From: Actinomycetota bacterium
GTDB lineage: Bacteria > Actinomycetota > Actinomycetes > Nanopelagicales > Nanopelagicaceae
Reading direction: 5' to 3'
Assembly: GCA_026392825.1 (NCBI GenBank)
Contig: JAPLBF010000006.1
Location: 41 to 64,040, forward strand
DNA length: 64,000 nucleotides
In this document: piece by piece, positions 7,996 to 64,000 of the stretch
How positions within the stretch are numbered: position 1 is the first letter of the stretch
Layout of the letters: every line of letters begins with the position of its first letter
The notes under the pieces: model-generated
What the model saw: the letters and a program-made list of their open reading frames with translations, nothing else
What the model was told of the DNA's origin: nothing
Database searches by the model: none
Program-made: the position numbers and the translations under genes

Positions 7996-9315
<1,320 letters not shown>

Positions 9316-10350
9316 TTACTTTTTTAGTGATGTACCGGTGGAACGCAGATCAGCGCAAGCGTGAACAACGCGTGCCGCCATTCCCGCTTCAGCAGCTTTA
9401 CCCCATGCACGTGGATCGTACATCTTTTTATTTCCAACTTCGCTGTCAATCTTTAACACGCCGTCATAGTTCTTGAGCATGTGGTCCACTACTGGACGAG
9501 TAAATGCATATTGCGTATCAGTATCGATATTCATCTTAATTACGCCGTAATCAAGTGAATCGCGGATTTCTGAAAGAAGAGAACCTGAACCACCGTGGAA
9601 AACCAAGTCCATCGGCTTACTTCCTGCGGCAAGGCCCTTCTTTGCAACAACCGCATCCTGCAGCGTCTGCAAAATCTTTGGCTGCAAGACAACGTTGCCT
9701 GGCTTATAAACACCGTGGACGTTACCGAATGTTGCTGCGACCATGTAACGACCGCGCTCTCCGAGTCCAAGAGTTTCGATTGTCATCAAGGCATCTTCGG
9801 GAGTTGAGTACAACTTCGCATCGTGCTTTGCTTCAACGCCATCTTCTTCGCCACCGACAACGCCGATTTCGATTTCTAGAATTGTGCGAGCAGCAACAGA
9901 TTTGGTGAGAAGCTCATCTGCAATCTTCATATTTTCATTCATATCAACTGCTGAGCCATCCCACATATGTGAGTTAAAGAGTGGGGCCTGTCCATTTTTG
10001 ATGCGCTGTGCACCGATTTCCAAAAGTGGACGCATATAGCCATCGAGCTTTTCTGCCGGGCAGTGATCAGTGTGGATTGCGATATTTACATTGTAATTTT
10101 TAGCGACAACGTGTGCGAACTCGGCGAGCGCAACTGCGCCATCGACCATGTTCTTAACTGTTGAACCGGATGCGTATTCTGCCCCGCCCCAAGAAAATTG
10201 AATGATTCCATCTGATTCAGCTTCGGCGAAACCACGAAGTGCTGCGATCAGTGTTTGTGATGATGAAACGTTTATTGCGGGATATGCAAATGCGCCAGCT
10301 TTCGCGCGATCCAACATCTCGGCGTAAATTTCAGGGGTTGCTATGGCCAT
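9316..10350 (-). CDS. fbaA: Class II fructose-bisphosphate aldolase
   Basis: Start moved to ATG 10350 (GGAG RBS): MAIATPE; HTDHC, FGNVHGVYK, FHGGSG, KMNIDTD motifs. Confidence 0.96.
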   Translation of the reverse strand: MAIATPEIYAEMLDRAKAGAFAYPAINVSSSQTLIAALRGFAEAESDGIIQFSWGGAEYASGSTVKNMVDGAVALAEFAHVVAKNYNVNIAIHTDHCPAEKLDGYMRPLLEIGAQRIKNGQAPLFNSHMWDGSAVDMNENMKIADELLTKSVAARTILEIEIGVVGGEEDGVEAKHDAKLYSTPEDALMTIETLGLGERGRYMVAATFGNVHGVYKPGNVVLQPKILQTLQDAVVAKKGLAAGSKPMDLVFHGGSGSLLSEIRDSLDYGVIKMNIDTDTQYAFTRPVVDHMLKNYDGVLKIDSEVGNKKMYDPRAWGKAAEAGMAARVVHACADLRSTGTSLKK

Positions 10351-10448
10351 AATGACTCCAAAATATCTCGGGGCGTAATCCCTGACCGAGCGCGTCATTG
10401 GGCCGAATTCAGGCTTACGCCTAATCCAACCACCTTCGCAGGCGGATG

Positions 10449-10485
10449 AAAAATCGCCATTCCCATCACGCGTAGGAAATGGCGA
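10449..10485 (-). terminator. Intrinsic terminator-like hairpin
   Basis: Plus strand TCGCCATTCCC(10454-64)...GGAAATGGCGA(10475-85), preceded by A5 (= U-tract on the minus strand); downstream of the small ORF at 10529-10627. Confidence 0.6.
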
Positions 10486-10528
10486 CTTTCCGTCCGATTG
10501 GCACCTGTCTTTAGATGGTTATGGATCT

Positions 10529-10627
10529 TTACGGATGGAGCAATTTCTGCAGGAAGGCGATCAAGCCAGCCAGGAGAGCTGGGCTGCTGATTATCTTCAG
10601 AAGCATCACAAGAAATGATGTGTACAT
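10529..10627 (-). CDS. Putative 32-aa hydrophobic peptide MYTSFLVMLLKIISSPALLAGLIAFLQKLLHP
   Basis: Manual translation; GGAAAGGG RBS-like tract 5 nt upstream of ATG; single hydrophobic segment; terminator-like hairpin downstream; below ORF-track cutoff. Confidence 0.5.
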   Translation of the reverse strand: MYTSFLVMLLKIISSPALLAGLIAFLQKLLHP

Positions 10628-10761
10628 ATTTTCCCTTTCCATTCTTCTTCTCTAGCTCGCACCTCGTTCGAGGTTAGAAGGCTGGGATCTTGCCCCATAT
10701 CTCCCATGCCACACCCAGAAAGCCTTCCGCCTGTTGATATTGACGAGTAATCTGCAGAGTT

Positions 10762-12732
10762 ATGAGTTCAGAAAAAATCGGCGATTCAATCGAAAATCTT
10801 TCGCAGGAGAACCGGCTCTTTCCACCGAGCCCGGAATTTGCCGCGCAAGCGAATGCAAAACCTGATTTGTATGCACACGCAGATAAAGACCGTTTAGCTT
10901 TTTGGGAAGAACAAGCGCGTGAGCTGACTTGGGATAAGACTTGGGATCAAGTTTTGGAATGGAATCCTCCATACGCCAAATGGTTTATTGGCGGCAAGAT
11001 AAATGCTTCGGTAAACGCGCTTGATCGTCACATCGCAGCTGGCCGTGGAGAACGAATCGCTTTTCACTTTGAAGGTGAACCCGGTGATACTCGCACAATT
11101 ACTTATTCGCAGATGCTCGAAGATGTATCGCAAGCAGCACACGCTTTAACTGAACTCGGAATCACCGCGGGCGATCGTGTCGCTATTTATATGCCGATGA
11201 TTCCAGAGGCCGCGGTTGCAATGTTAGCTTGTGCGCGAATCGGCGCAGTTCATTCAGTTGTCTTTGGTGGATTTTCTGCAGATGCGCTTCTATCTCGCAT
11301 CCAAGATGCCGATGCTAAGTTGGTAATTACTGCAGATGGTGGCTTCCGCAAGGGTTCAGCATTTGCGCTAAAGCCCGCGGTTGATGAAGCGTTAAAGGGT
11401 AAGCACAATGTGGAAAAAGTTCTGGTTGTAAAGCGCACGAAACAAGAAACAGTGTGGAACTCAGATCGTGATATTTGGTGGCATGAAATTGTTAACCGCC
11501 AAAGCAAGTCACACACACCTGAATTCTTTGACAGTGAGCACCCGCTCTTTATTCTTTACACTTCTGGAACAACTGCCAAGCCAAAGGGAATTTTCCACAC
11601 AACAGGCGGATATTTAACCCAAGCGGCATACACACATCGCGTGGTCTTTGATATCAAGCCTGAAACAGATATTTACTGGTGTACCGCCGATGTTGGTTGG
11701 ATTACCGGCCATTCTTACGTTGTTTATGGACCACTAATAAATGGCGCAACACAAGTTATTTATGAAGGAACTCCTGATACACCACATAAAGGCCGCCTCT
11801 TTGAAATTATCGCAAAGTACGGTGTAACTATTTTGTACACCGCGCCGACTTTGATTCGTACTTGGATGAAATGGGGAGATGAATTCCCACAGGCTCACAA
11901 TTTATCTTCGTTGCGTTTACTTGGGTCAGTTGGTGAACCAATTAATCCAGAAGCGTGGATGTGGTATCGCGAAGTAATTGGTGCAAACAATTGTCCAATC
12001 GTCGACACTTGGTGGCAGACCGAAACCGGCGCGATAATGATTTCACCACTACCTGGCGTTACCGCAACCAAACCAGGATCTGCGATGAAAGCACTTCCAG
12101 GTATCAGCGCAAAAGTTGTTGATGATCAAGGCGTTCCAGTTCCTAATGGACACGGTGGATTCTTAATTTTGGATCAACCATGGCCTTCAATGTTGCGTGG
12201 TGTTTGGGGCGAAGACGAGCGTTACAAAGAAACTTACTGGTCACGTTTTAAAGGAATTTACTTTGCTGGCGATGGCGCAAAGTTAGATGGCGATGGCGCG
12301 ACTTGGCTAATGGGACGCGTTGATGATGTTATGAACGTTTCCGGTCACCGCATTTCAACTACTGAAGTTGAGTCTGCTTTGGTTTCACACGAAGCGGTCG
12401 CTGAAGCAGCAGTTGTTGGTGCAGCAGATGAAATGACCGGCCAAGGCATTGTCGCCTTCGTTATTTTGCGCGGCGGAATACCAAATGTCGGCGGCGAAGA
12501 GTTGGTCAAAGAGCTGCGCGCTCACGTAACCAAGGAGATCGGCGCAATCGCTCGCCCGCGTCAGATTATGGTTGTGGCAGAACTTCCGAAGACGCGAAGT
12601 GGAAAAATTATGCGCCGCTTACTAAAGGATGTTGCTGAAAATCGCGCAGTCGGAGATGCGACAACACTGGCTGATCCAAATGTAATGAAGCTGATTTCAG
12701 AAGGGTTAAATTCTTCTAAAGACGAAGATTAA
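10762..12732 (+). CDS. acs: Acetyl-CoA synthetase
   Basis: 656 aa; YTSGTTAKPKG, DTWWQTETG, PKTRSGKIMRR; TAATCT -10 lies 8 nt before ATG. Confidence 0.98.
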   Translation: MSSEKIGDSIENLSQENRLFPPSPEFAAQANAKPDLYAHADKDRLAFWEEQARELTWDKTWDQVLEWNPPYAKWFIGGKINASVNALDRHIAAGRGERIAFHFEGEPGDTRTITYSQMLEDVSQAAHALTELGITAGDRVAIYMPMIPEAAVAMLACARIGAVHSVVFGGFSADALLSRIQDADAKLVITADGGFRKGSAFALKPAVDEALKGKHNVEKVLVVKRTKQETVWNSDRDIWWHEIVNRQSKSHTPEFFDSEHPLFILYTSGTTAKPKGIFHTTGGYLTQAAYTHRVVFDIKPETDIYWCTADVGWITGHSYVVYGPLINGATQVIYEGTPDTPHKGRLFEIIAKYGVTILYTAPTLIRTWMKWGDEFPQAHNLSSLRLLGSVGEPINPEAWMWYREVIGANNCPIVDTWWQTETGAIMISPLPGVTATKPGSAMKALPGISAKVVDDQGVPVPNGHGGFLILDQPWPSMLRGVWGEDERYKETYWSRFKGIYFAGDGAKLDGDGATWLMGRVDDVMNVSGHRISTTEVESALVSHEAVAEAAVVGAADEMTGQGIVAFVILRGGIPNVGGEELVKELRAHVTKEIGAIARPRQIMVVAELPKTRSGKIMRRLLKDVAENRAVGDATTLADPNVMKLISEGLNSSKDED

Positions 12733-15136: not shown

Positions 15137-15608
15137 ATCCCTTTAATTCAGCAATTTCAACGGTGAGTTCAATCTCCACCGGTGAATTTAAAGGAAGCTC
15201 TGCAACTCCGATTGCACTTCGCGCAGCAATTCCAGCATCGCCCCAGATATGCATGAAGAGCTCAGATGCTCCATTTGCAATAAATGGTTGATTAAGAAAA
15301 CCAGGCGCGCCGTTTACATAACAAACTACGCGAACAACTTTTACAATCATATCTACCGGAGCGACGAGTTCGACAGCTGCAAGACAGTTGAGGGCGCAAA
15401 TTTCTGCAAGTTCTTTCGCTCGCTCTTGAGTTATTTCAGCTCCAACTTTGCCGGTATCGGCCATTGCGCCATCTACTAATGGAAGTTGTCCTGCAGTAAA
15501 AACTATTTGTCCAGTGCGGACTGCTGGCAAATAAGCAGCAACAGGTTTAGCGGCTATCGGAAGCGTTAAACCTTTTTCAGCAAGCTTTGCGCGGACATCG
15601 ATCGCCAT
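15072..15608 (-). CDS. RidA/YjgF family protein with C-terminal extension
   Basis: AAYLPAVRTG..VFTAGQLP, ANGASEL, ARSAIGVAELPLNSPVEIE. Confidence 0.9.
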   Translation of the reverse strand: MAIDVRAKLAEKGLTLPIAAKPVAAYLPAVRTGQIVFTAGQLPLVDGAMADTGKVGAEITQERAKELAEICALNCLAAVELVAPVDMIVKVVRVVCYVNGAPGFLNQPFIANGASELFMHIWGDAGIAARSAIGVAELPLNSPVEIELTVEIAELKGSSANAYLGGQHQQSILNDRPA

Positions 15609-15610
15609 AG

Positions 15611-15763
15611 TTATTTAATCTCTCGCTTCATGTAAGCAACTAATTGTTCGCCGCCTGGCGCAGGAATAACAGTTACGAGTTCCCAACCATCTGAACCCCA
15701 AGTATCAAGAATCTGCTTTGTGGCGTGTGAAAGTAGTGGGACGGTTGCATATTCGAATTTCAT
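15611..15763 (-). CDS. DUF4177-type small protein (50 aa)
   Basis: Not in track: MKFEYATVPLLSHATKQILDTWGSDGWELVTVIPAPGGEQLVAYMKREIK; TAATG overlap with yqeY stop; usual actinobacterial neighbour of the ridA gene. Confidence 0.9.
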   Translation of the reverse strand: MKFEYATVPLLSHATKQILDTWGSDGWELVTVIPAPGGEQLVAYMKREIK

Positions 15764-16221
15764 TAATTTCCTCCGGCTAGCGCTGCTTTTACAAGTGATG
15801 AAACTAAAGAACCATCTGCTTTGCCAGCGATCTGGCCCTTGATGGCTCCCATAACTTTGCCCATATCGCCAGGTCCAGCAGCACCAGTTGATGCAACTGC
15901 GGCGGCAATCATTTTCTTTATGTCATCTTCAGAAAGTTGTGCTGGTAAATATTTAGCAATTACTTCGCCCTCAGCTTTTTCTTCTGCGGACTTATCGGGG
16001 CGATTGGCTTTGGCAAATTCTTCGGCCGCTTCACGGCGCTTCTTGGCTTCACGCGATAAGACGGTGATGATTTCGTCTTCAGTAAGTACGCGGGCTTCTT
16101 TTCCGGACACTTCTTCGTTAGTAATTGCAGTTAAGACCATACGGATTGTTCCTGATACGACCTTGTCGCTACTGCGAATTGCCTCTGTTAAGTCGCTCTT
16201 AAGTGTCTCTTTGAGTCCCAC
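15763..16221 (-). CDS. GatB/YqeY domain protein
   Basis: LSREAKKRREAAE, YLPAQLS, DMGKVMG, ADGSLVS. Confidence 0.93.
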   Translation of the reverse strand: MGLKETLKSDLTEAIRSSDKVVSGTIRMVLTAITNEEVSGKEARVLTEDEIITVLSREAKKRREAAEEFAKANRPDKSAEEKAEGEVIAKYLPAQLSEDDIKKMIAAAVASTGAAGPGDMGKVMGAIKGQIAGKADGSLVSSLVKAALAGGN

Positions 16222-21858: not shown

Positions 21859-21926
21859 ATTCACTCCTCTCTTCTGCGCGACAATATTTACAACCTATTA
21901 CAAAGTACCGACTGGCACTATATAAA

Positions 21927-22016
21927 GGACCCCCCACGCACCCATTAGAGCGCGCCTACCCTTGCTGTATTCCTACCCTGGGGGAGTTCAGCGCGGTAAT
22001 GCCGCGTGAGGGATCT
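21927..22016 (-). ncRNA. ffs: Signal recognition particle RNA (4.5S)
   Basis: Minus strand ...GAACTCCCCCAGGGTA-GGAA-TACAGCAAGGG... (helix 8 GGAA loop with CAGG/AGCA); terminal GATCCCTCACGC/GCGTGGGGGGTC pairing; TATGAT -10 six nt upstream; upstream of dnaX. Confidence 0.93.
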
Positions 22017-22072
22017 GGCGTAATCATAGTTATTACCCCGTTACCCTTAGCCAGTCGGGAGTGATCCCGCCA

Positions 22073-22157
22073 GGAGGATTCGCATAGCGGCCGAGTGCGC
22101 ACGCTTGGAAAGCGTGTAAAGGGCAACCTTTCGAGGGTTCAAATCCCTCATCCTCCG
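22073..22157 (+). tRNA. tRNA-Ser(GGA)
   Basis: GGAGGAT/ATCCTCC acceptor, CACGC-TTGGAAA-GCGTG anticodon arm, long variable arm, GGTTCAAATCC T-loop. Confidence 0.97.
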
Positions 22158-26422: not shown

Positions 26423-26451
26423 TAACGATTCCGGAGTTTTCTGAGAAATTC

Positions 26452-26946
26452 TTATAGCTCCAATAACTCGGCAAATTGATCAGCAAATCCTAAACGGCTT
26501 GCAATCGCTTCTAATTGTTCATCAGGAAATAGTTCAGTGTCATCACACAATGCAGAAAGCTCCATTTGATTGACGCCAAGATCAGCCAAAATATCTAGAT
26601 GACCAACCGGTAAAGGTTCATCATCTTCTTCTGGTGAATCTAAATCACAAAGTTCCAGAAAATCCGCTGCGACTTCGTAATCAATTGCGCAAGTAACATC
26701 ACTTAGAAACATACTTATGTGAGAACCCAATACTCGGATCACCATAAAGAATTCTTCGTCAATTGCCAACAAGGCAATTGCTCCGCCATTGGTTTGTTGA
26801 GACTTTAGGCGATCAATAATGTGCGGTAAGTCATGTGCGTCAGGTAACAGCGCTAAATTCCAGCGCCCGTCCTCGTGCCACGCAGCAACTGCGATATCTA
26901 CCTCGTTCACCATTGCATCCGTCACATCCACCATATTCTCACTCAT
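26452..26946 (-). CDS. tRNA adenosine deaminase-associated protein (acidic, actinobacterial)
   Basis: Start at ATG 26946; [34 protein letters not shown]; between upp and tadA. Confidence 0.8.
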
Positions 26947-59122: not shown

Positions 59123-59195
59123 TGCGCGCGAAGGGATTCGAACCCCTAACCTTCTGATCCGTAGTCAGATGCTCTATCCGTTGAGCTACGCACGC
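59123..59195 (-). tRNA. tRNA-Arg(ACG)
   Basis: GCGTGCG/CGCGCGC acceptor, TCTGA-CTACGGA-TCAGA anticodon arm, GGTTCGAATCC T arm. Confidence 0.97.
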
Positions 59196-62098: not shown

Positions 62099-62266
62099 TA
62101 CTTAATTATTCCTCAATTTGTAAGAGGATACAATTTCAGCTTTACGTCCCGTAGTTATAGAAACCACAATATCTATAGGCGTTTGCGGAACGATATTTAC
62201 CTTCATAAGAGGTAATCTATCGTGCTGAAGCATCACTTAAGCGGCAGTTAGGTCGAGAAGGTAGAT

Positions 62267-64000
62267 ATGGCGAACCAAGTCGTAACAAACGCAATCGTTT
62301 GCTCCTTTTATACAGGCGATGAATATTACAAGGGCCACGCCGCCAGACTTAAGGCTAATCTCGAATCACTTGGTATTCCTTATGAATTACGTGAGATCGC
62401 AAAGCAACCGGGTGATGATTGGGCAGATATTTGCCGTAAGAAAGTTGGATTTATCGCGGAAGTTTGTGCCACTAATCCCGATAAGAAAGTTTTCTGGATA
62501 GATGTTGACTGCGAAATTTTCTCTCTGCCAGATTTCGTTCTCAACTCAACCGCAGATGTAATTGGATTCCAACGCGGATTTAGCACTCCCTCAAGTATCG
62601 GCTATGAAAACCGAAGCCGTTTTTGGGAACCCTGCTTCTGGGGGATTAATACAACTGCGCCGGCAAGGCAGATGGTTGCCGCGGCCGCAGAATTTGAAGC
62701 GGTAGCAACAGTTAAGGCGACAGATGACTTCTTCTTTGAGGCCGCTTGGCGAGCTGTTTCGCCACTTATGACCTTCCAAATTATCCCTTCAAATTGCGCC
62801 GTTGATAAAGGTAAGGGTTCTCTTGAAGGCCATGAAGCGTTCTTTAGATTTGGATCTAGCGGACAAGTAGATAACTTCAAGAAAAAGGTTCAGCAACATA
62901 AAGGAAAAAGAAAAAGGAAGCTTGGGCCAAAGCGCCGAATTCTAGAATTCGCCAAGATGGTAGAAGAAAAACTGCCGGAAGACTTAACGGCTAAAACGCG
63001 CTCACTAGTAGATGCGTCAGGAATAACAGGATTTTTGACTAGTAAGAAACACAATGATTTAAGCAGTAAGCTTGTTGCACATATTCTTGCCGCCGGAAAA
63101 TCTGGGAATGCAGAAAAATTTAATAAATCGATCACACTCTTGCAGAGCACTTCATTGCCGAATAAAAATGAAAGTGCTGCTATTAAGGCGGCTTCGACCT
63201 TCTTGAGTTATTCATCCAAACCGGACACTAAGAAGATTTATCTCTCATGGTGGGAAAATCCATACCCAGGTAACTATGGTGACTGGCTCACACCCTACAT
63301 TTTTAGCCATTACACGAGCAGCAGAATCTTCTTCCACAATTTAACGAGCCGCTCGACTAAAAAACATATCGTTAGTCTCGGATCTGTAGGTCGATTTATA
63401 AAAGGTAACTCTGTTGTGGTTGGCACTGGAGTGAGCTCATTCAAACACGCTCTCAATCCAAAGGCGGATTACATCTCGGTGCGAGGTCCACATACCGCTG
63501 ATTTGCTTGTTCAATCAGGCGGACCAAAAGTCGAAAACTTTGGCGATCCAGGAGTAGTGCTCTCTAGAATTTTGCCACTAACCCGAGGTGCAACGAACGG
63601 AAGAGTCGCTCTTGTGCGCCACTACACGCATCTGCAAGCGCCTGTAATCCTGCCAAATAACTTTGACGAGTTGTCCGTCCAACTTTCGCATCCCGATGAC
63701 ATCGTCGCCTTCATTAAGAAACTTAATGAATATGACAGTGTTGTAACGAGTGCCATGCACGTACTAATCACTTGTCAGAGTTACGGAATTCCTTGTGCGC
63801 TCGTAGTATTTAAAGGATTTGAAGAATATGTGCACGGAGATGGCATTAAATACATTGATTACGCTTTAGGTGCAGGCGTAAAGGCAATTAGCCCAACACC
63901 TATAGATCCAAAGTTGGATTGGAATGAGATAAAACCGCTAATTGAAACAATCCAAGTATCAGATTCGAAAATTGCAGAAGTCGAAGCAGCAATCAAAGAA
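62267..64000 (+). CDS. Fusion: N-terminal DxD glycosyltransferase-like domain + C-terminal polysaccharide pyruvyltransferase-like domain (runs off right edge)
   Basis: Not in track; manual translation is open from ATG 62267 to the window end (578 codons): CSFYT...KKVGFI...FWIDVD; then GNYGDWL, LGSV, GTG, SVRGPHT, GDPG, VVTSAMH..ITCQSYGIP. Confidence 0.85.
   Translation, partial: MANQVVTNAIVCSFYTGDEYYKGHAARLKANLESLGIPYELREIAKQPGDDWADICRKKVGFIAEVCATNPDKKVFWIDVDCEIFSLPDFVLNSTADVIGFQRGFSTPSSIGYENRSRFWEPCFWGINTTAPARQMVAAAAEFEAVATVKATDDFFFEAAWRAVSPLMTFQIIPSNCAVDKGKGSLEGHEAFFRFGSSGQVDNFKKKVQQHKGKRKRKLGPKRRILEFAKMVEEKLPEDLTAKTRSLVDASGITGFLTSKKHNDLSSKLVAHILAAGKSGNAEKFNKSITLLQSTSLPNKNESAAIKAASTFLSYSSKPDTKKIYLSWWENPYPGNYGDWLTPYIFSHYTSSRIFFHNLTSRSTKKHIVSLGSVGRFIKGNSVVVGTGVSSFKHALNPKADYISVRGPHTADLLVQSGGPKVENFGDPGVVLSRILPLTRGATNGRVALVRHYTHLQAPVILPNNFDELSVQLSHPDDIVAFIKKLNEYDSVVTSAMHVLITCQSYGIPCALVVFKGFEEYVHGDGIKYIDYALGAGVKAISPTPIDPKLDWNEIKPLIETIQVSDSKIAEVEAAIKE

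Follow-up and report, generated by a model that had tools for sequence, protein, structure and literature searches.

Within the window, as we call the whole stretch of 64,000 nucleotides analysed here, the gene for class II fructose-bisphosphate aldolase (fbaA) and the acs gene are separated by a spacer that holds a small protein gene with its own Shine-Dalgarno (SD) site, an intrinsic terminator and a conserved sequence block upstream of fbaA (Table 1). The window has a G+C content of about 46%, and its FbaA is 98% identical to FbaA of a 'Candidatus Planktophila' MAG, which assigns the window to the freshwater Nanopelagicales (acI). Counted from the fbaA ATG at 10350 to the acs ATG at 10762, the spacer amounts to 411 nt and ranks fifth among the 59 gaps of the window, the median gap being 1 nt. 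A previous sequence-only reading of this DNA had described the gap as unusually long, which it is, but its length of 360 nt had to be corrected once the fbaA start was placed at the conserved ATG. The longest open reading frame (ORF) for fbaA (9316-10398, 360 aa, start at 10398) was rejected as over-extended by 16 codons, because all fbaA orthologues begin with M[AP]IATPE[IV]YA and a GGAG lies upstream of ATG 10350. Rfam returned nothing in the acs-fbaA gap, either for the whole window at gathering thresholds or for positions 10300-10850 at E <= 10. Elsewhere in the window, Rfam identified a bacterial small SRP RNA and two tRNAs (21922-22018, minus strand; 22073-22157, plus strand; 59123-59195, minus strand), which explain two other long gaps. 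Four other gaps of 396-684 nt between ORFs of at least 90 aa (15137-15820, 62099-62601, 575-983 and 26423-26818) had no Rfam match at gathering thresholds and may contain further small genes or regulatory RNAs.

Table 1. Positions of genes and sequence features in and around the acs-fbaA spacer (window coordinates)
Feature	Position	Strand	Remarks
fbaA, class II fructose-bisphosphate aldolase	9316-10350	-	start ATG 10350 (MAIATPEIY), GGAG 8 nt upstream
Conserved fbaA upstream block	10371-10437	-	GGTGGTTGGATTAGGCGTAAGCC ... CCCAATG ... GATTAC; alignment of 80 loci
Intrinsic terminator	10448-10491	-	17-bp hairpin, core GUCGCCAUUUCC / GGGAAUGGCGA; U-run 10453-10449
Small protein gene	10529-10627	-	32 codons + TAA: MYTSFLVMLLKIISSPALLAGLIAFLQKLLHP
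Shine-Dalgarno site of the small gene	10632-10640	-	GGAAAGGGA, 4 nt upstream of ATG 10627
Inverted repeat GAAGGCT..AGCCTTC ('leader' stem)	10674-10728		present; functional RNA structure unsupported
acs -10 hexamer	10748-10753	+	TAATCT, 8 nt before ATG 10762; apparently leaderless mRNA
acs	start ATG 10762	+	divergent from the small ORF

Organization of the acs-fbaA spacer

Leaderless genes are numerous in actinobacteria, and acs appears to be one of them, since, of 56 distinct acs start contexts, 51 contain a TANNNT hexamer (G-TAAYCT) that ends 6-8 nt ahead of the start codon and no more than 7 show an SD-like site. The acs promoter overlaps the right arm of the inverted repeat GAAGGCT..AGCCTTC and therefore leaves only about 90 nt for the promoter and the 5' untranslated region of the small gene together, so that the leader of about 100 nt originally assigned to the small ORF had to be abandoned. 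The spacer between acs and the small gene also carries a DnaA-box-like motif, TATCAACAG, at 10731-10739 on the minus strand. It is kept about 25 nt from the acs ATG, as TATCCACAG in loci L003, L004 and L120 and as TTATCCCCAC in L009, and could be a site for a promoter or regulator; the DnaA-box consensus is TTATCCACA.

The minus-strand ORF of 32 codons on which the sequence-only reading was built is present, intact in orthologues and under purifying selection, and it is not annotated in the gene calls for this genome. The family alignment backs the 32-aa start at 10627 and not the 37-aa start at 10642, because in-frame upstream extensions are not conserved. The purine-rich ribosome-binding site assigned to the ORF was likewise borne out, with an SD-like site found in 62 of 67 distinct orthologous coding sequences. 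The spacer offered no convincing candidate for a sigma-70-type promoter of the small gene. In one short-form clade (L011 and its relatives L091, L101, L103, L104, L124 and L165), no SD precedes the small ORF; the sequence of L011 is CCAATATCCGCCCCATG there, with a hexamer resembling a -10 element about 8 nt ahead of the small-ORF ATG, and the small gene may be leaderless in this clade.

In the window, the terminator hairpin starts 43 nt after the stop codon of the small ORF. It has a folding energy of -25.4 kcal/mol and a z-score of -6.2, none of 200 shuffled sequences folding as well, and a hairpin with a T-run was found in 47 of 65 distinct orthologous segments, so that the terminator-like hairpin noticed previously stands. 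With a loop of 10 nt it was missed by a consensus terminator scan and recovered by folding. The T-run usually lies 26-29 nt (40-41 nt in a few loci) before the conserved GGATTAGSCGTAAG (GGATTAG) block, and the T-rich tail of the terminator probably doubles as the -10 region of an fbaA promoter. Across 80 loci the consensus of the block reads (A/G)GTG(G/A)NNGGATT(A/G)G(C/G)CGTAAG, CCCAAYG and (A/T)TTAC, followed by the SD of fbaA. We consider it likely that the block represents the 5' end of the fbaA 5' untranslated region or an operator and lies outside the small gene. Within the block GTAAG is complementary to xTTAC, and the inner arms look complementary within clades. RNAalifold yielded no consensus structure in the block, Rfam gave no match, and the thermodynamic mean z was -0.7. 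A hand-derived P1/P2 helix was discarded, as the 78% of cells that were paired equalled the value for shuffles and covariation was 0.085 versus 0.081.

Conservation of the small gene and its two sequence classes

The loci compared were fbaA loci from GTDB genomes together with 80 metagenome loci found via the conserved upstream DNA block. In about 85 of the 92 distinct Nanopelagicales loci, a positional orthologue of the small ORF occupies the spacer between acs and fbaA; the family HMM matched in 77 of the 92 distinct upstream regions at equal position and orientation, and nine further loci carry GTG-start or divergent long forms. Between the window and its closest relative, L001, the small ORF shows 7 synonymous and 2 non-synonymous differences, corresponding to a dN/dS of 0.08. 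The same dN/dS was obtained for the long forms of L009 and L010, and the median pN/pS over 128 pairs of orthologues was 0.27. None of the antisense frames of the small ORF stays open across orthologues. The synteny of fbaA-acs gaps in related genomes and dN/dS, both put forward beforehand as checks on the ORF, thus came out in its favor. That the ORF is short, that the exact peptide of the window is absent from a collection of 15 billion proteins and that it has no family annotation are what one would expect from a chance ORF in a regulatory spacer. However, about 85 divergent loci, in which synonymous sites are saturated, keep the frame open, dN/dS is 0.08, and SD and terminator are conserved. 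The comparative data effectively refute this explanation, which has hardly any probability left. The comparison across loci shows that the small ORF is a real gene, with purifying selection on its protein product and vertical inheritance at a fixed slot; we infer its translation from the SD and from selection at the codon level.

The gene order is constant (crp-nth-redoxin-acs(<-)-smORF(->)-fbaA-purA-purD-purB), and each locus carries one copy of the small gene in the fetched stretches, with fixed synteny. In the 64-kb window the gene is single-copy, with neither a paralogue nor tandem copies. On the FbaA tree the peptide class, short or long, follows the phylogeny, and actinobacteria outside the Nanopelagicales, which served as outgroups, do not have the gene. 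In one clade (L090, L110, L123 and L154) the acs-fbaA spacer measures only 134-148 nt and contains no small ORF. As this clade is nested among short-form, ORF-bearing clades on the FbaA tree, the absence points to secondary loss, and because of this loss the gene is dispensable there. The T-run and the fbaA upstream block are retained. In this clade a hairpin overlaps the acs start codon, with the same CGCCGATTTTTCA tail and the conserved block behind it.

An hmmscan of seven family members against Pfam-A gave no match at E <= 10, and NCBIfam returned nothing meaningful for the seven. A profile search of 5.8 billion clusters produced 71 matches, each of them a small protein encoded in a freshwater metagenome or a Nanopelagicaceae genome, and an exhaustive HMMER scan of 1.84 billion representative proteins produced 21 matches, all to the same freshwater family. 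The few database matches with a source name are called 'hypothetical protein'. By these searches, the small-protein family is confined to the Nanopelagicales (acI freshwater Actinobacteria). Its members fall into two classes. Proteins of the short class have 32-35 aa, with K11 and L22 alone invariant. Those of the long class have 48-52 aa with invariant H13, H31-S-N, G35, G38 and G47, start with GTG in some cases and are found at loci L006, L008-L010, L081-L085, L095, L099, L102, L106, L108, L112, L115, L117, L118, L140, L141, L147 and L155-L157. The paired histidines and the GxxG pattern of the long class might serve metal binding or helix packing. Homology between short and long forms was not demonstrated (hhalign probability 0.7%; p = 0.11 in a column-permutation test), and it is uncertain whether the two classes, as positional orthologues, are of common descent.

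RNA structure and transcription at the locus

The sequence-only reading had favored a toxin-antitoxin locus of type I, in which the peptide would be a membrane-depolarising toxin whose translation is curbed by an antisense or divergent sRNA and by mRNA structure. The RNA features cited for it exist as sequence but do not behave as conserved structures. The GAAGGCT..AGCCTTC stem has a z-score of +0.23, 109 of 200 shuffles folding as well, and is kept in only four of the seven closest relatives; its 5' arm is invariant and its 3' arm is lost in three of the seven without compensatory change. The ACCTC-GAAC-GAGGT hairpin (z = -1.23) was found in the window alone among its closest relatives. An 8-nt complement linking 10733-10726 with 10446-10439 can indeed be drawn, but its 3' partner lies beyond the U-run of the terminator (10453-10449), outside the terminated RNA, and the pairing decays in L105 and L139 without compensation while the 5' partner stays fixed. 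In the minimum free energy fold of the putative transcript, which has a z-score of -1.0 as a whole, the SD of the small ORF is unpaired. With a free SD and hairpins at chance level, there was no sign of the ribosome-binding site sequestration or long-range 5'-3' pairing that characterizes hok/ldr. Between the window and L001, dS of the small ORF (0.37) is similar to that of fbaA (0.45), acs having a value of 0.84; the synonymous rate is thus not reduced, and no constraint from an overlapping antisense RNA is seen. Inspection by eye for a mycobacterial-type LexA box revealed just a TCGAAC half-site in the window, which is absent in relatives.

Metatranscriptomes from samples containing the window's own strain hardly covered the region. 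The RNA evidence comes from the orthologous locus L120 and consists of unstranded metatranscriptome contigs, the depth of which is a crude measure. At this locus the small ORF is covered by one exact RNA-run contig of 151 nt with a depth of 2, obtained together with an exact fbaA contig with a depth of 5.7; the 151-nt contig could be DNA carry-over. In four other metatranscriptomes with fbaA depths of 4-69, contigs end at or before the hairpin and none extends over the small ORF. The upstream ends of fbaA contigs in seven runs lie at 8223-8346 of L120, and in two independent runs they fall at 8296, 5-8 nt after a -10-like TAATTT hexamer that sits within the T-run behind the hairpin. These ends are most simply explained by fbaA transcription beginning mainly at a site of its own right behind the terminator, an explanation that fits both the 26-29 nt spacing of the T-run and the retention of T-run and block in the ORF-less clade. 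In run X28, an RNA-run contig joins position 8346 of L120 back to 7622 via 8 extra letters; this join is probably an assembly artefact and was left out of the evidence on 5' ends.

These data also bear on the idea that the small ORF encodes a cis-acting leader peptide, whose translation would control the hairpin and U-run as an attenuator of fbaA transcription. ORF, hairpin with U-run and fbaA follow each other on the same strand, no more than 2-15 nt separate the stop codon from the hairpin in many clades, and some of the L120 RNA contigs extend from fbaA across the hairpin and reach 8314, 8325 and 8346. Furthermore, the slot is held by two sequence classes without demonstrable homology. However, the amino-acid sequence is under selection over the full length of the peptide, runs of regulatory codons are lacking, and the distance from stop codon to hairpin varies between 2 and 43 nt across loci, with 43 nt in the window. 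A leader would be expected to be at least as abundant as the gene it controls, whereas RNA for fbaA is at least 20 times that of any RNA over the ORF. The ORF-less clade keeps T-run and block and must express fbaA from there, and the contigs of two runs end just after the -10-like hexamer. Leader RNA at or above the level of the gene, judged by contig depth as a crude measure, was not found, nor was an ORF overlapping an alternative terminator or antiterminator. Given transcription of fbaA mainly from its own start, the small ORF is not a leader peptide on this reading, and we regard such a role as decidedly unlikely. The small gene would instead form a separate, weakly transcribed unit with a somewhat leaky terminator, allowing some read-through to fbaA.

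Properties of the peptide and comparison with known small proteins

For the window peptide, AlphaFold (AF2) predicted two helices, residues 2-14 and 16-30, with a break at Ser15-Pro16 (pLDDT 83). Together with a KD19 value of 2.17, this confirmed the hydrophobic helix described earlier; the window clade as such is very hydrophobic (KD19 about 2.2). Lys11 and Pro16 make the insertion energy of the window-clade peptide marginally unfavorable (+1.7 kcal/mol); the invariant Lys11 sits midway in the hydrophobic stretch. The window short form has a muH18 of 0.28. The whole family is cationic, the 32-aa product carrying a charge of +2. One long form was predicted to fold into helices 2-33 and 36-47 (pLDDT 74), and the long forms, with muH values of 0.5-0.7, have the character of cationic amphipathic helices and not that of transmembrane segments. 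The basic tail initially ascribed to the window peptide shrinks to K28 and H31, as its C-terminus (...AFLQKLLHP) contains no Trp and one Lys. An AP(I)LAG-like core is discernible as SPALLAG in the window but is confined to one subclade, others reading NPTLVAAL, GNATLVSAL or SSTANVKLL. Association of the peptide with the membrane would be suggested by its composition, the predicted insertion energy being positive. In its length (<50-60 aa), the purifying selection on it and its hydrophobic helical segment, the ORF agrees with what is expected of a small membrane protein gene, and the 32-aa form likewise has the small size, hydrophobicity and predicted membrane helix that are generic to type I toxins.

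Single-copy occurrence and synteny within a family are also seen in some chromosomal type I toxins, for example tisB, and this can be counted in favor of the toxin reading. In size, single hydrophobic helix, charge and marginal insertion energy the window peptide resembles TisB and Fst, the controls in this physico-chemical comparison, and its RNA abundance is low relative to the neighboring gene. TisB, the SOS-induced type I toxin of E. coli (29 aa), shares with it the length, a hydrophobic helix punctuated by Lys and Gln/Lys, the range of KD and insertion energy, and single-copy, syntenic occurrence within its own family. However, TisB has no sequence homology to the window peptide, and the small gene has neither a LexA box nor a structured, processed 5' untranslated region nor a detectable antisense constraint. 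Toxins of the Ldr/Fst type are similar in their 30-35 aa and their Pro-containing hydrophobic helix, SPALLAG in the window clade standing against AP(I)LAG, but the Pro-x-x-x-x-Gly motif is not conserved across the small-protein family. Pfam-A includes Ldr and Fst toxin models, and the family members did not match at E <= 10. Purifying selection has been reported for type I toxins (PMC2887945). The signature of Ldr/Fst consists of a conserved Trp behind the helix and, after it, a cluster of charged residues at the C-terminus (Fozo et al., 2010; PMC2887945), and the window peptide has neither of the two. Ldr/Fst-type toxins tend to tandem duplication (PMC2887945), whereas the small gene has no tandem repeats. 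A tandem, multicopy or patchy pattern, typical though not obligatory for type I systems, was not observed; the distribution of the small gene follows the FbaA tree, indicating order-wide vertical inheritance in streamlined genomes. A survey in 2010 found no type I toxins outside the Firmicutes and gamma-Proteobacteria (Fozo et al., 2010; PMC2887945). Lacking the Ldr/Fst signature, with unconserved leader stems at chance level and a free SD, and as a single-copy, vertically inherited gene, the locus did not sustain the toxin-antitoxin assignment, and a toxin role of the small protein is unlikely. Quite unlikely, too, is a variant in which the peptide would be a domesticated, single-copy membrane depolariser of the type I toxin kind, held in check by an sRNA and kept as a core gene for entry into dormancy. 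If this were true, Actinomycetota would gain their first type I toxin-antitoxin system.

The amphipathic character of the long-form relatives, cationic helices with muH of 0.5-0.7, recalls SpoVM and the phenol-soluble modulins and raises the question of a released peptide, modulin-like or similar to leaderless bacteriocins, that acts on other cells or surfaces. The absence of a signal peptide, the positive charge and the amphipathic helices, above all in the long forms (muH up to 0.7), would be in line with this. The window short form is, however, less amphipathic than SpoVM and the modulins and far more hydrophobic than these, and its clade likewise far exceeds phenol-soluble modulins and lacticin Q in hydrophobicity. 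A sporulation or secretion context is not apparent at the small gene, its conserved neighborhood has no transporter, immunity or modification gene, and the gene is core-like, single and vertically inherited. We consider release of the peptide very improbable.

We favor, with moderate confidence, the interpretation of the small gene product as a lineage-specific, membrane-associated small protein with an accessory or modulatory function. According to this proposal, a stand-alone Nanopelagicales microprotein gene with its own SD and its own intrinsic terminator, placed between the leaderless acs and fbaA, would encode a cationic and very hydrophobic helix-kink-helix peptide which inserts marginally into the cytoplasmic membrane or lies on it. 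Rather than a toxin, the peptide would most likely be an accessory or modulatory subunit of a membrane protein, comparable to KdpF, AcrZ, CydX and MgtS. The sequence-only reading had kept a small regulatory membrane protein in reserve, and this fallback is still the best description of a gene with a ribosome-binding site, a terminator and purifying selection. Small membrane-protein subunits and modulators of Gram-positive bacteria have been reviewed (PMC10730256). KdpF, AcrZ, CydX and MgtS resemble the small protein in having about 30-50 aa, one hydrophobic helical segment and no signal peptide, and their genes, too, are found on the chromosome in single copy, evolve under purifying selection and are conserved along with the lineage. 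They show no sequence similarity to the window peptide and differ in further respects. Their genes usually lie in or beside the operon of the partner, whereas acs, fbaA and purA encode cytosolic enzymes; the hydrophobic stretch of the window peptide is broken by the invariant Lys and a Ser/Asn-Pro kink; and their insertion energies are negative where that of the window peptide is positive (predicted values). Low expression and the physico-chemical likeness to TisB and Fst would be seen with a toxin as well and count against an accessory role. Because the long-form relatives do not look like transmembrane proteins, the small protein could also bind other proteins in a soluble or peripheral role.

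The result removes a tempting but unsupported toxin-antitoxin annotation, and a small protein of this sort is unsurprising in kind. It also documents a compact spacer layout in which an apparently leaderless acs, a microgene, a terminator that probably shares sequence with the fbaA promoter and a conserved leader block of fbaA follow one another. In lakes, the Nanopelagicales (acI) dominate the bacterioplankton, and their highly streamlined genomes measure less than 1.5 Mb. A protein of 32-52 aa that is kept order-wide at one locus under strong purifying selection in such streamlined genomes is likely to be useful to them. The family has no homologue elsewhere and its annotation goes no further than 'hypothetical protein'; it adds a well-supported member to the short list of actinobacterial microproteins and provides a target for work with Planktophila cultures.
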